This document shows positions 2,717 through 49,006 of a DNA stretch of 64,000 nt, one piece after another (position 1 is the stretch's first letter; every line of letters starts with the position of its first letter). Under the pieces are notes generated by a model, which was given only the letters and a program-made list of their open reading frames with translations, had not been told where the DNA came from and made no database searches. This stretch comes from an uncultured Candidatus Saccharibacteria bacterium (GTDB lineage Bacteria; Patescibacteriota; Saccharimonadia; CAILAD01; BJGX01). Where the stretch lies: assembly GCA_964637185.1 (NCBI GenBank), contig CAZWVB010000001.1, positions 160,972 through 224,971 on the forward strand. The letters are read 5' to 3'. The translations under genes were made by a program, and so were the position numbers.

Positions 2717-2745
2717 TTGTGATCTTACGTCAGATCGGCTATAAT
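2717..2745 (+). promoter_or_regulatory. Sigma70-like promoter upstream of fusA (-35 TTGTGA, 17-nt spacer, -10 TATAAT)
   Basis: TTGTGA at 2717-2722 and TATAAT at 2740-2745. The -10 is preceded by CAGATCGG, a variant of the recurrent CCAGATGG element. Confidence 0.5.
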
Positions 2746-2824
2746 AACTGTCAAACAGCCAGCTATGGCTGGGTTTTCATTACTTTAGAGCTCAACAAGC
2801 TAAGAAAGGACAGAGATCACACGT

Positions 2825-4942
2825 ATGGCACGTGAATATTCACTTGAGGTTACACGCAACATCGGCACCATTGCTCACATTGATGCTGGTAAGACTACAG
2901 TTACTGAGGGCATCCTGTATCGTACAGGTGTAGTACACAAGATAGGTGAAGTCCACGAGGGAGAAGCTACCATGGACTGGATGGAGCAAGAGCGCGAGCG
3001 CGGTATCACCATCACTAGTGCAGCTACGACTTGCTTCTGGAAAGACAGCCGCATCAACATCATTGACACCCCAGGTCACATCGACTTCACCGTCGAAGTA
3101 GAGCGCAGCTTGCGTGTACTAGACGGTGCTTGTGTTATCTTCGACGGCAAGATGGGTGTGGAGCCACAGTCCGAGACTGTCTGGCGTCAGGCCAACAAAT
3201 ATGGGGTGCCTCGTATCTGTTTTATCAACAAGATCAACCAGACTGGTGGTGACTTCTACAAGAGTCTCGAGAGTATACATGAGCGACTTAGCCGACATGC
3301 TTATCCTATCCATTTGCCGATTGGCTTTGAACAACAGATCAATGGTGTGATAGATCTGATAGACATGAAAGCCTATACCTATAGCGACTATGCCGACAAA
3401 GAATTGGTTGAAGGTGAGATACCAGAAGACATGCGTGAGAAAGCCGAGAAATATCGCAATCATTTGATCGAGGCTGCTCTTGAAGCCGATGACGCATTGC
3501 TAGAGAAGTATCTCGATGGCGGCGAGTTGACCAAAGAAGAAATCCAGGGCGTGATCCGCAAATCAGTTCTGCGCGGTGATTTCTTCATCGTATCCGGTGG
3601 TGATGGCCGTGGTGTGATTGTGGAGAAGCTGCTTGATCTGATAGTGGATTATCTACCAAGCCCGCTAGATATTGCTCCGCCTGTGGCTACTGACGCCAAG
3701 ACTGGTGAGGAGAAGGTCCTCACTGTCGGTGATGACCAGCCATTTGCCGGGCTGGCTTTCAAAATCGCCACCGACCCATTTGTGGGTAAGTTGTGCTTTT
3801 TCCGTGTCTATACCGGCACCCTCAAGTCAGGTAGCTATGTGATCAATGCAAGTACTGGCGAAAAAGAGCGCATCGGACGCATCGTCCGTATGCACGCCAA
3901 CAACCGCGAGGAGGTCGACGAAGTATATGCTGGCGAGATAGCCGCAGCCGTTGGGCTCAAAAACACAGTTACTGGCAATACTCTGTGTGATGACAAGCAA
4001 AGCGTGCTGCTTGAAAGCATTGAATTTCCTGAGCCAGTCATCAGTATCGCTGTGGAGCCTAAGACCAAAGCTGATCAAGAGAAGATGAGCTTGGCTCTCG
4101 CTAGGTTAGCTGAGGAAGATCCGACATTTCGTGTTCATACCGATGAAGAATCAGGTCAGACTATCATAGCTGGTATGGGTGAGCTGCATCTGGAAGTGCT
4201 GGTCGATCGTATGAAACGTGAATTCAAGGTTGAGGCCAATGTGGGTCGACCGCAAGTAGCCTTTCGCGAGACCATCAAGGGCACCGCGCAAGTCGAAGGC
4301 AAATTTGTTCGCCAATCCGGTGGTCGTGGTCAATATGGCCATGTCTGGCTCGAGCTAAGTCCTCTAGCAAAGACCGAAGAAGACGACAAGAACAAAATAT
4401 TTGAATTTGAAAACGCTATCGTCGGTGGCGCTGTACCTCGCGAATACATTGCCCCTGTCGAAGCTGGCGTCAAAGAAGCTATGCAAAACGGTGTGATTGC
4501 CGGCTATCCAGTGGTGGATGTGCACTGCAAACTCTATGATGGTAGCTACCATGAAGTTGATAGTAGTGAGGTAGCCTTCAAAATAGCAGGCTCGATGGCC
4601 CTGCAAGAGGGTGTGCGCAAGGCTACGCCGGTCATCATGGAACCAACCATGAAAGTAGAGGTCACCACACCTGAAGAATTCATGGGTGATGTGATAGGCG
4701 ATATCAATGCCAAGCGCGGCCGGGTTGAAAATATGGAAGATCGATCTGGCGCCAAGCATATTTTGGCTTTTGTGCCGCTGGCTGAGATGTTTGGCTATGC
4801 TACCAGCCTGCGCAGTATGACCCAGGGACGTGCCGCCTATGCCATGGAATTCGATCACTATGCCGAAGTACCAGGACAAGTTGCTGAAGAGCTCAAAGGC
4901 AAATACACCGCCGCTCGTGAAGCTGGCGAAAGTACCAAGTAG
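2825..4942 (+). CDS. fusA: Translation elongation factor G
   Basis: 705 aa. G-domain motifs [17 protein letters not shown] and NKID, with the typical EF-G domains II-V. Confidence 0.97.
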
Positions 4943-4964
4943 TACTAGCTCAACTTAACTTACA

Positions 4965-4990
4965 AAAAGAGCCTTACTAGGCTCTTTTTG
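4965..4990 (+). terminator. Rho-independent terminator after fusA
   Basis: AAAAGAGCC-ttactag-GGCTCTTTTTG: a stem followed by a T-run. Confidence 0.7.
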
Positions 4991-48383: not shown

Positions 48384-48645
48384 AAATAGCAGGAACTATG
48401 GTAGCAGCCAATAGTGTATAGCCAAAATCCTCAATAGGAATAGTTAAAAGTTTTACTCCAAGAATTGCTCCCATATTATACTGCACGATTGGCCGATAGG
48501 TGATCCACCAGTCAAATATAATAGTTAAAATAGTCAGCCCAAGCAGTGTAAGCACCCAAGCCTTCAAAACAATCTTCCGGCGTGCCAAAAAAAGTACTAT
48601 TAAAGCTATAATAACTTCCAGTGCCAATAGCAGGCCGTATTTCAT
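48322..48645 (-). CDS. Lycopene cyclase domain protein (heterodimeric cyclase subunit, CrtYd/CrtYf-like)
   Basis: 107 aa. Three TM helices. Conserved PIED motif (TIPIEDFGYTLL). Confidence 0.7.
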   Translation of the reverse strand: MKYGLLLALEVIIALIVLFLARRKIVLKAWVLTLLGLTILTIIFDWWITYRPIVQYNMGAILGVKLLTIPIEDFGYTLLAATIVPAIFELLYEYFQPTKKNTSDTTD

Positions 48646-48977
48646 TGGCCAACCAATCTCTTACTAGCCTGATAAAGATTGCAGCACAAGTAACCAATTA
48701 GTACCAGTAACAAGATTTCTTCAACTGGCAAGTTCGGGTTGACTATATTTATATTCATAACGTATTTTTGATTGGTATAGAATATCTGCCAGCCAATTCC
48801 TGCGATGTCCAAAAGTAGCAGTAACAGTGTGCTGGCTAATATGGCTATGCCGCTAGCTGGAGTATTGTCCCAAAATGACAATCTATAATGCTTGTCTATA
48901 ACCATCATACCCCCTAAGCCAACAAGCAGCACTAGTAAATATGCAAAATGATCAATGATGTATACCATATTTTTCAC
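48642..48977 (-). CDS. Lycopene cyclase domain protein (heterodimeric cyclase subunit, CrtYc/CrtYe-like)
   Basis: 111 aa. Three TM helices. PVEE motif (NLPVEEILLLVL). Confidence 0.7.
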   Translation of the reverse strand: MKNMVYIIDHFAYLLVLLVGLGGMMVIDKHYRLSFWDNTPASGIAILASTLLLLLLDIAGIGWQIFYTNQKYVMNINIVNPNLPVEEILLLVLIGYLCCNLYQASKRLVGQ

Positions 48978-48990
48978 TAATAAGCCTAAC

Positions 48991-49006
48991 CCATCTGGTA
49001 TTATAT
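48991..49006 (+). promoter_or_regulatory. CCATCTGG plus ta plus TTATAT element 7 nt upstream of the crtI ATG (leaderless candidate)
   Basis: CCATCTGG at 48991-48998, TTATAT at 49001-49006, ATG at 49014. No SD. Confidence 0.4.

Follow-up and report, generated by a model that had tools for sequence, protein, structure and literature searches.

A probable mixture of extended -10 signals, spacer sequence, and predicted leaderless starts behind a recurrent CCAnnTGG word at Saccharibacteria promoters

The window, a stretch of 64,000 nucleotides from an uncultured Candidatus Saccharibacteria bacterium, carries seven promoters that share a CCAGATGG-like word close to the -10 hexamer. They precede fusA, infA, a K+ channel gene (Kch), an MFS transporter gene, crtI, and the genes for a 216- and a 285-amino acid protein (the latter also referred to as the 45509 gene). 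Five further promoters of the window are listed along with these in Table 1, including the one that drives the large ribosomal-protein operon beginning with rplC. The gene for the 216-amino acid protein starts at 35994, has a leader with an AGGAG Shine-Dalgarno sequence, and diverges from the 1795-amino acid GNAT-domain gene served by the promoter at 36080. Downstream of the fusA promoter come a leader hairpin and the Shine-Dalgarno sequence AAGAAAGGA. Rfam returned four tRNAs as its only matches over the window and no match on the rplC leader. An ECF sigma factor is encoded at 43603-44163 and would recognize a different promoter type.

Table 1. Predicted promoters of the window and their sequence signals
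Promoter	Position	Strand	Signals
fusA	2717..2745	+	-35 TTGTGA, 17-nt spacer containing TCAGATCG, -10 TATAAT
rplC (large ribosomal-protein operon)	10363..10392	+	-35 TTGACA, CCAGATAG-ag-CTATCTGG, -10 TAGACT
infA (alpha-operon)	20586..20614	+	-35 TTTACA, 17-nt spacer GATTAGACCAGATGGGG, -10 TATAAT
K+ channel (Kch, TrkA-N/C domain)	25491..25516	+	CCAGATGGgcTATAAT, 7 nt, ATG; predicted leaderless
MFS transporter	30379..30392	-	CGATCTGG, -10 TATGAT, 6 nt, ATG at 30372; extended -10, predicted leaderless
Upstream of minus-strand tRNA (32683-32766)	32809..32820	-	ATCTGC, then TAGACT
216-amino acid protein	36039..36054	-	CCAGATATGG, then TATGCT (TATGg extended -10)
1795-amino acid GNAT-domain protein	36080..36090	+	TCTGC, then TAAAAT
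285-amino acid protein (45509 gene)	45467..45482	+	CCAATTGGtgTATAAT
crtI	48993..49004	+	ATCTGG (extended -10), then -10 TATTAT; ATG at 49014
rplJ	62054..62065	+	ATCTGA, then TACAAT; -35 TTGACT
Window 3' end	63952..63963	+	ATCTGC, then TACACT

A sequence-only reading had grouped the seven sites as a single palindromic element abutting the -10 box. All seven strings are present in the window, one of them displaced by 1 base: on the minus strand, CCAGATATGGTATGCT, the site of the 216-amino acid protein, occupies 36039-36054. The proposed CCAnnTGG symmetry holds for the outer CCA and TGG, whereas CCAGATGG and CCATCTGG are not palindromes, and CCAATTGG is the only true one. Even CCAGATATGG, described as a perfect 10-bp palindrome, is imperfect and pairs at four of five positions, because its reverse complement is CCATATCTGG. 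The position relative to the hexamer also divides the set. The element abuts the -10 box at crtI, MFS, and the 216-amino acid protein gene (gap 0), whereas two bases intervene at infA, Kch, the 45509 gene, and fusA (gap 2).

At the gap 0 sites, the junction of TGG and hexamer yields TGgTAnnnT, with TG one base upstream of the -10 hexamer (TGgTATTAT at crtI, TGgTATGAT at MFS, and TGgTATGCT at the 216-amino acid protein gene). The same extended -10 arrangement is found at rplC, rplJ, the tRNA promoter, and the 36080 and 63952 sites, but not at infA, Kch, fusA, and 45509, which have TGG or CGG two bases further upstream. All six matches to ATCTGnTAnnnT in the window sit at promoters, with ∼81-86% of the window being coding. 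T-n-T-G-n precedes 63 of 1102 intergenic -10-like hexamers compared with 36 of 2554 coding ones (p = 3e-12). In Saccharibacteria loci totalling 539 kb, the distribution of ATCTG relative to -10-like hexamers has its maximum at offset -6 (16/1135 intergenic versus 3/2741 coding, p = 1e-6), and the ATCTGn peak is sharp, one base before the hexamer. By composition at position -16, TTTG (24) and TCTG (20) are followed by TGTG (10) and TATG (9), and the clade around the window genome has an excess of the TCTG flavour (22/56 versus 11/103, p = 6e-5).

This signal is preserved in orthologous promoters that lack CCAnnTGG. TGn persists while the flanking spacer drifts at crtI (L086-L088), MFS (L005), the 285-amino acid protein gene (L086 and L087), and rplC (five species). 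The crtI orthologues read TGaTATGAT (L086), TGcTATTAT (L087), and TGgTATGAT (L088), each followed by 6-7 nt and ATG, and none of the three has CCAnnTGG. For MFS, the sister species L005 has tttTGaTATGAT-N6-ATG, and thus only TGn and the layout are kept. Comparison of the promoter of the 216-amino acid protein gene is uninformative because the sole relative found (L085) is 98% identical. The same holds for the one homologue retrieved with the 1795-amino acid protein, since its contig is 98% identical to the window and all three sites there are unchanged. The nearest non-self homologue of CrtI is 66% identical, which makes a sister-species comparison impossible for crtI, 45509, and the 216-amino acid protein gene. 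No relatives of the 258-amino acid protein (44662-45438) were found in a metagenome scan.

The TGG-abutting signal is the known extended -10 element with a clade-specific flavour. The TGG that touches the hexamer at crtI, MFS, and the 216-amino acid protein gene belongs to the "-16 region", T(-17) n T(-15) G(-14) n, which in the clade of the window genome often takes the form A-T-C-T-G-n. By analogy with other bacteria, this element would be a contact point for sigma region 3.0, which would make up for a weak -35. The same signal precedes the rplC, rplJ, tRNA, 1795-amino acid protein, and window-end promoters. The suggestion of a lineage-specific extended -10/-16 element is thus borne out at the three TGG-abutting sites and extends to five promoters that had not been listed; the CCAnnTGG palindrome is not part of it.

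At the gap 2 sites, the word behaves differently. It is lost in the orthologous promoters of fusA and the 45509 gene, as it is in those of MFS and crtI, and is kept only at infA, in a sister species with an identical core promoter. The fusA relatives (AGAAATCAgcTATAAT in L089/L214 and AGGTTTGCgtTATACT in L090) preserve -35 and -10 and change the spacer. Orthologues of the 285-amino acid protein gene in L086 and L087 have TGgTACAAT and a conserved leader, and CCAATTGG is absent. In L085, an AAG replaces the out-of-frame ATG at 45496 of this gene region. The Kch promoter of L005, TCAGATACgcTATAAT, keeps 5/8 positions of the 8-mer and has lost its ends, and ∼12 relatives show TATAAT-N7-ATG without the 8-mer. 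In contrast, the infA promoter is identical from -35 through -10 in L005, where the spacer matches at 17/17 positions and the 5' UTR at only 17/23, which hints at constraint on the spacer sequence. TTTACA-N17-TATAAT with differing spacers is found at infA in more than 15 other Saccharibacteria, including TTTACAGAT..ATCTGtgTAGAAT in L019.

At infA, Kch, fusA, and 45509, the 8-mer simply makes up the 3' portion of the 17-bp spacer. The succession GC, AT, G-rich matches the generic organization of bacterial promoter spacers, and a dedicated factor would be unnecessary. Before intergenic TATAAT, positions -4 to -1 are enriched in G, and infA and Kch have CCAGATGGG in common. CAGAT at offset -9 occurs only in the window and the sister species. 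A duplication of the promoter between infA and Kch was rejected, as the flanks match at only 5/14 bases. Also rejected was an antisense promoter, since the ATCTGG opposite CCAGATGG precedes TCTAAT (infA), TTGGTT (Kch), and CGTAAG (fusA), and the essential A at position 2 is absent.

How far the resemblance among these sites exceeds chance can be judged from the frequency of the word. CCANNTGG has no overall excess (39 found versus ∼30 expected) and weak or no enrichment in non-coding DNA (8 versus ∼5.4), and exact CCANNTGGNNTATAAT occurs three times. A further ∼17 kb of the same species (L001 and L091) contains no additional exact 8-mer at a promoter. Scanning metagenomes for CCAGATGGNNTATAAT gave at least 120 unrelated matches, mostly coding; among the matches listed, none was homologous to the window. 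In a column-shuffle test on the 19 intergenic exact TATAAT boxes, the in-phase triple CCA..TGG..TATAAT reaches a family-wise p of 0.003 for this gap pattern and 0.04 for any 6 of 8, whereas among 185 relaxed -10-like boxes the values are 0.85 and 0.60. Statistical support for the gap 2 CCAnnTGG hence depends on the reference set, with family-wise p from 0.003 to 0.85.

These figures bear on the view that the grouping is pure coincidence combined with selection by the reader, who scanned ∼45-60 promoters by eye, a few of which happen to have a short gapped word in common in their spacers, and assembled palindrome, two registers, and both strands post hoc. The lack of an excess, the relaxed-set values, the absence of new instances in the same species, and the loss of the 8-mer in relatives all agree with it, as do the differences in spacing, orientation, and mismatches among the listed sites. 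However, the TGG-abutting sites are clearly not due to chance, being positionally sharp and conserved, and p falls to 0.003-0.04 for the triple and for the in-phase run of 10 nt common to infA and Kch when only exact TATAAT boxes serve as reference. We regard pure coincidence plus selection as quite unlikely.

Symmetry of operator length (∼12 bp or more) is confined to the rplC promoter, which had not been among the seven; the listed 8-mers have 3+3 symmetry with asymmetric flanks. The rplC spacer (10369-10386) forms an inverted repeat (8+2+8) with perfect 8-bp arms, the 3' arm of which is the ATCTGG extended -10. In the sister species, the arms CCAGAT/ATCTG are retained and the center is altered; L089/L214 have CCAGATCGGGTAATCTGA, and L090, L215, and L216 retain only a TCTGA extended -10. 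The same 28-nt cassette serves as rpsL promoter in L090 (perfect match) and, with one mismatch, in L215, and thus in another operon and other species. CAGAT-N2-12-ATCTG occurs 10 times in the 539 kb versus 4.5 expected, with 6 of them directly adjoining the -10 box of an rplC, rpsL, or infA promoter. ATCTG/CAGAT also ranks first among 5-mers present twice in a spacer (8/89 promoters versus 3 for the next word), and the infA spacer itself contains CAGAT twice in direct orientation.

This repeat keeps the operator reading alive. A clade-specific DNA-binding regulator could read CCAGAT(A)/(T)ATCTGG, with CCAGATAG-N2-3-CTATCTGG in the rplC and rpsL spacers as the full operator and infA, Kch, fusA, crtI, MFS, and the 216-amino acid protein gene as half-sites or weak ones. 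By occupying the DNA between -35 and -10, the regulator would repress or adjust the expression of the translation apparatus and some other genes. The perfect arms, their recurrence at rpsL, and their retention in the sister species would follow from such a regulator, as would the paired words and the presence of CAGAT or ATCTG in six of the seven listed sites. However, the 3' arm is already accounted for by the extended -10, and the 5' copy flips its orientation (inverted at rplC in the window and direct in L215; direct at infA in the window and inverted in L019). The gap between the 5-bp arms ranges from 4 to 7 in the rplC, rpsL, and infA promoters, which is unusual for a dimeric operator, and two copies are found in only three promoter families, so that there are few independent events. 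Moreover, half-sites are lost in relatives at fusA, MFS, and crtI, CCAGAT has no general enrichment in non-coding DNA (16 versus 10.4 expected), and no candidate regulator gene was found. We know of no match to LexA, CodY, or other known boxes. Altogether, such a regulator appears rather unlikely.

The idea that the listed sites themselves are the operator of a global regulator is not supported, the word being too short as an 8-mer, mostly asymmetric, and lost in orthologous promoters other than that of infA. Nor is it probable that the word is a target of DNA methylation or restriction-modification. GATC lies within three sites (CAGATCG at fusA, CGATCTG at MFS, and CCAGATCG at rplC of L089), which is the sole point in favor; most sites lack it, no methyltransferase was found adjoining them, and the word is neither depleted nor enriched as is usual for such targets. 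We rate this reading as very improbable.

The third component concerns translation. Distances from -10 to ATG had been given as 7 nt for Kch, 6 nt for MFS, and 7 nt for crtI (from TTATAT), all of which are correct; for crtI, TATTAT is the better hexamer and lies 9 nt 5' of the ATG. The intervals acttgtt (Kch), aagact (MFS), and atatgcaat (crtI, from TATTAT) leave no room for a Shine-Dalgarno sequence, so that all three genes lack one. At least eight further genes of the window share this arrangement, with a start codon 5-9 nt downstream of the -10 hexamer and the Shine-Dalgarno sequence missing. Among 301 TATAAT hexamers, 29 have an ATG 6-8 nt downstream that opens an ORF of 100 codons or more, whereas each distance outside 6-8 nt accounts for at most two cases and no peak is seen with control hexamers. 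Conservation of the layout extends to ∼12 relatives at Kch, three at crtI, and one at MFS.

The earlier proposal of leaderless mRNAs thus fits a strong over-representation of TATAAT-N6-8-ATG, and for Kch, crtI, and MFS predicted leaderless transcripts are supported by geometry and conservation. Such mRNAs, including those of the at least eight other genes, would begin at or within ∼3 nt of the start codon. From the crtI ATG at 49014, the mRNA of this gene would be leaderless or have a leader of at most 3 nt.

Taken together, the CCAGATGG "palindrome" is a mixture and not one regulatory element, and the idea of one global operator lacks support. Its parts are the clade-typical extended -10 (ATCTGn), non-conserved promoter spacer, and a conserved, predicted translation start at the transcript 5' end. 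The seven sites are probably ordinary sigma-70-type housekeeping promoters of Saccharibacteria whose shared letters have different causes, to which we assign a probability of roughly two in three. Under the housekeeping-promoter explanation, CCAGATGGnnTATAAT would be expected at no more than ∼5 promoters genome-wide. A model entirely without a factor does not explain the infA spacer, the two-copy word, and the rplC/rpsL repeat. A novel factor of this clade or an unusual RNA-polymerase contact might read CCAGAT(A)/(T)ATCTGG, with two copies about one helical turn apart in the main translation-apparatus spacers and the CCAGATGG sites at infA, Kch, and fusA as single-copy members of the regulon. 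We consider this unlikely as well; if true, it would mean promoter-level control of ribosome synthesis in reduced genomes.

To our knowledge, very little has been described of the promoter and translation-initiation signals in CPR/Patescibacteria, and Nanosynbacter lyticus is the only member with mapped transcription starts that we know of. For Saccharibacteria, two rules emerge: ATCTGn or TTTGn before a -10 box marks promoters, and a -10 box 6-8 nt before an ATG marks leaderless genes. Both should make the calling of gene starts and the prediction of operons more reliable and help to design expression cassettes for those few strains that are tractable. If the palindromic rplC/rpsL cassette is an operator, it offers a lead to the regulation of ribosome synthesis in Saccharibacteria.

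Several known systems resemble these signals. The predicted leaderless starts are similar to those of GeneMarkS-2 "group C" genomes (Actinobacteria and Deinococcus-Thermus), which are defined by the same geometry, a Pribnow box 6-8 nt before the start codon of the gene that leads an operon and no Shine-Dalgarno sequence (PMC6028130). The present lineage differs in belonging to the Saccharibacteria/CPR, and its leaderless starts are predicted from sequence. A full-text search found no literature specifically on leaderless mRNAs of Saccharibacteria, CPR, or Patescibacteria; in N. lyticus TM7x, 188 transcription starts have been mapped (PMID 35975994, as listed in PMC12641261).

The rplC 8+2+8 repeat between -35 and -10, recurring at rpsL, is reminiscent of spacer-located dyad operators of dimeric helix-turn-helix repressors. 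In contrast to these, the listed sites are non-conserved 8-mers with 3+3 symmetry, and arm orientation and spacing at rplC, rpsL, and infA vary between orthologues; any regulator is putative. The gap 2 sites resemble the four-region sigma-70 spacer, consisting of an AT tract, a GC-enriched part, a second AT tract, and a G-rich end including TG/GG (PMC12641261). GATTAGA-CC-AGAT-GGGG of infA and AACCAA-CC-AGAT-GGGC of Kch follow the same order, with G enriched before TATAAT. However, the generic spacer is a statistical description from other species and gives no reason to expect the same 9-mer in two promoters.

Finally, the gap 0 sites align well with the extended -10 and the Gram-positive "-16 region", an element described as TG/TRTG (PMC12641261). 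As in these, TG is located one base 5' of the hexamer with a T two bases further up, and the signal is promoter-enriched, frequent where the -35 is poor, and kept in orthologues. Differences are found at -16, which here is mostly C or T instead of a purine, and in the A that often precedes (ATCTGn). The TCTG flavour is concentrated in the Saccharibacteria clade around the window genome.

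The sequence-only reading had proposed that seven promoters (fusA, infA, the K+ channel gene Kch, crtI, an MFS transporter gene, a 216-aa gene on the minus strand and a 285-aa gene at 45509) share one CCAnnTGG palindromic element abutting the -10 box. All seven strings were found in the window, that of the 216-aa gene at a corrected position (see table), and the reading is partly right: it picked up a genuine promoter signal and genes that are probably leaderless. A common palindromic element is not supported. The list had pooled two registers. At crtI, MFS, and the 216-aa gene, TGG indeed touches the hexamer, whereas at infA, Kch, 45509, and fusA, TGG or CGG lies two bases from TATAAT. 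The symmetry of CCAGATATGG, described as a perfect palindrome, is imperfect, as is that of CCAGATGG and CCATCTGG; CCAATTGG alone qualifies. Three exact copies of CCANNTGGNNTATAAT occur in the window, and CCANNTGG is not enriched there (39 observed versus ∼30 expected; 8 versus ∼5.4 in non-coding DNA). A column-shuffle test, corrected for the freedom of pattern choice, gave p values of 0.003 (this gap pattern) and 0.04 (any 6 of 8 positions) for 19 intergenic exact TATAAT boxes and of 0.85 and 0.60 for 185 relaxed -10-like boxes. No additional exact promoter copy was present in ∼17 kb more DNA of the same species.

Apart from infA in the sister species, the 8-mer is changed or absent in the informative orthologous promoters. 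CCAnnTGG is therefore not a conserved site. A global operator at the seven listed promoters is not supported. At infA, the -35 box TTTACA, the 17-nt spacer, and TATAAT are all identical in the sister species (L005), and TTTACA-N17-TATAAT is retained with differing spacers in >15 other Saccharibacteria. The Kch promoter of the sister species reads TCAGATACgcTATAAT; 5 of the 8 bases agree, the symmetric ends are lost, and the match is no better than that of the surrounding promoter (65% identity); the Kch promoters of the remaining relatives contain nothing resembling the 8-mer. The MFS promoter of the sister species retains tttTGaTATGAT-N6-ATG only. Orthologues of crtI on three related contigs carry TGaTATGAT (L086), TGcTATTAT (L087), and TGgTATGAT (L088), followed by 6–7 nt and ATG, and the 285-aa gene has TGgTACAAT and a conserved leader in L086 and L087. 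At fusA, the -10 box is retained, as is the -35 box (TTGTGA, TTGTGT, or TTGTAT), and the spacer differs (AGAAATCA in the related contigs L089 and L214, AGGTTTGC in L090). The region of the 216-aa gene is uninformative, its sole relative being a 98% identical contig. Judged from these sequences, the conserved features are the -35 and -10 boxes, TGn where present, and the -10-to-ATG distance, not the CCAnnTGG 8-mer.

Positions of features in the window
Feature	Position	Content
Site upstream of 216-aa gene	36039-36054 (minus strand)	
rplC-operon promoter	10363-10392	TTGACA, CCAGATAG-ag-CTATCTGG, TAGACT
rplC-operon 5' leader	10393-10496	
fusA leader	∼2755-2790	hairpin CAGCCAGCT-atgg-CTGG, then T-run GTTTTCATT
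tuf leader	∼6120-6155	terminator-like hairpin ACTGGCgttttttgtattGCCAGT, then TTTTT
infA 5' UTR	20615-20637	no Shine-Dalgarno sequence
Inverted repeat upstream of MFS promoter	30431-30452	CAGATAcccaaTATCTG, then TTTTTT on plus strand
Starts with -10-like hexamer 5–9 nt upstream	8314, 10103, 25514, 26571, 33355, 34001, 41696, 49014, 60297, 63311; 30372 (minus strand)	
Gene for 1795-aa protein	36195-41582	
Conserved neighbourhood	41696-52403	ABC/FtsX transporter, ECF sigma factor, two unknown genes, 285-aa gene, UbiA-glycosyltransferase fusion, lycopene cyclase, crtI/GGPP synthase/crtB
ECF sigma factor gene	43603-44163	

The TGG-abutting sites are extended -10 elements, or "-16 regions" (T-n-T-G-n directly before the hexamer, from which offsets are counted). 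All six window matches to ATCTGnTAnnnT lie at promoters (rplC operon, MFS, a tRNA, crtI, rplJ, and the window 3' end). Across 539 kb of Saccharibacteria loci, we compared intergenic with coding -10-like hexamers; TnTG precedes 63 of 1102 of the former and 36 of 2554 of the latter (p = 3e-12). The commonest 4-mers at -5 to -2 of the intergenic hexamers are TTTG (24), TCTG (20), TGTG (10), and TATG (9), and ATCTG forms a single sharp peak at offset -6 (16/1135 versus 3/2741, p = 1e-6). TCTG makes up 22 of 56 TnTG in the window's clade versus 11 of 103 in a pooled set of distant Saccharibacteria, Doudnabacteria, and Lachnospiraceae (p = 6e-5), and TCTGr stands ahead of the -10 box of the rplC promoter in all five species compared. 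The suggestion of a lineage-specific extended -10/-16 element thus holds for the TGG-abutting sites, with the TCTG share as its clade-specific part, but not for the two-base-gap sites.

We take the latter, at infA, Kch, fusA, and 45509, to be ordinary spacers. They run AT-rich, CC, AGAT, and then GGGG or GGGC, and intergenic TATAAT boxes here are preceded by an excess of G at -4 to -1. Among the Saccharibacteria loci, CAGAT at offset -9 is confined to the window and the sister species. That infA and Kch have an identical 9-mer reflects either coincidence or a weak preference specific to the species.

The promoter of the large ribosomal-protein (rplC) operon, absent from the original list, has perfect 8-bp inverted arms in its spacer, the 3' arm being the ATCTGG extended -10. 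That this repeat is an operator site seems to us unlikely, even though the rpsL promoter of the related contig L090 is the same cassette (TTGA-CCAGATAG-gct-CTATCTGG-TAGAGT), that of L215 matches it with one mismatch, and the sister species' rplC promoter retains the arms CCAGAT and ATCTG around an altered centre. CAGAT-N2-12-ATCTG occurs 10 times in the 539 kb versus 4.5 expected, and 6 of the 10 copies adjoin the -10 box of rplC, rpsL, or infA promoters. Among 89 promoters selected by -35 and -10 alone, ATCTG/CAGAT ranks first of all 5-mers present twice per spacer (8 promoters versus 3 for the runner-up), and CCAGA/TCTGG leads the words of the 5' spacer portion (8 versus 1.5 expected). However, two copies are confined to three promoter families, the 5' copy flips its orientation among orthologues (rplC in L215; infA between the window and the related locus L019), the gap between copies varies from 4 to 7, and no regulator is known. 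The same CAGATA/TATCTG arms recur in the inverted repeat ∼40 nt upstream of the MFS promoter, which looks like a plus-strand terminator.

Leaderless mRNAs, as the sequence-only reading had anticipated, are predicted from the spacing of -10 box and start codon. In the Saccharibacteria loci, an ATG that begins an ORF of ≥100 codons lies 6, 7, or 8 nt after TATAAT at 29 of 301 hexamers (10, 11, and 8 cases), with two cases at most at any other distance, and composition-matched control hexamers show no distance peak. The -10-to-ATG layout is retained in the Kch, crtI, and MFS orthologues. A full-text search found no paper describing leaderless mRNAs in Saccharibacteria or CPR.

Several leaders are conserved. 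Many of the Saccharibacteria compared (window, L005-L030) have CTGTAAC/TGTAGC ∼13 nt past the infA -10 box. The rplC-operon leader is conserved and structured in the window and in L089 (18762-18855), L090 (15580-15674), and L215 (21025-21144). Its outer stem (CTGGG..CCAGG in the window, CTGAG..CTCAG in L090 and L215) and its inner hairpin (CCG/CGG in the window, CCATC/GATGG in L215, CTATC/GATAG in L090), which is followed by GAAACCGG, differ between species by compensatory changes. It has no match in Rfam even at an E-value of 1 and is a candidate ribosomal-protein leader. The fusA leader likewise shows compensatory changes (GTCAGC..GCTGAC in L089; GCCG..CGGC, then TTTTTATTTT, in L090; GCCGacaaattCGGC, then TTTTTATTTT, in L215), and its terminator-like element, between promoter and Shine-Dalgarno sequence, is a possible attenuator. 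The tuf hairpin is conserved in L089 and L214, with similar elements in L215 and L216.

The window has a G+C content of 48.9%. The nearest relatives of its RpoA are Candidatus Saccharibacteria (sister species, 90% identity; one group, 66–75%; others, 56–59%), and exact matches to its proteins come exclusively from metagenome-derived contigs. Pfam agrees with the gene names used here (EF-G, IF-1, TrkA-N/TrkA-C K+ channel protein, MFS transporter, and CrtI-type desaturase). The genes rpsL-rpsG and fusA lie ∼5 kb apart (window 1-2825; L089-L093; L214-L216), separated by small genes of unknown function, mostly on the minus strand, and a NUDIX hydrolase; this content varies even between contigs sharing 100% identical EF-G. 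The conserved neighbourhood around crtI, with the same synteny in L086-L088 and, in relatives, a PAS histidine kinase next downstream of the 285-aa gene, may be an ECF-controlled carotenoid locus. The 1795-aa protein has a C-terminal GNAT as its sole recognised domain, and a search of 5.8 billion clustered proteins gave a single homologue at an E-value ≤1e-20, with 95% identity.

Both signals fall within categories already described, the extended -10 promoter and the leaderless mRNA, here in an under-studied phylum. In other bacteria, the extended -10 or "-16 region" is TG or TRTG (PMC12641261), whereas the window's clade has a clade-specific C/T at -16. The two-base-gap spacers follow the region order of bacterial spacers in general, namely an AT tract, a GC-enriched region, an AT tract, and a G-rich end including TG or GG (PMC12641261). 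The -10-to-ATG layout of Saccharibacteria fits the definition of the leaderless "group C" genomes (PMC6028130).
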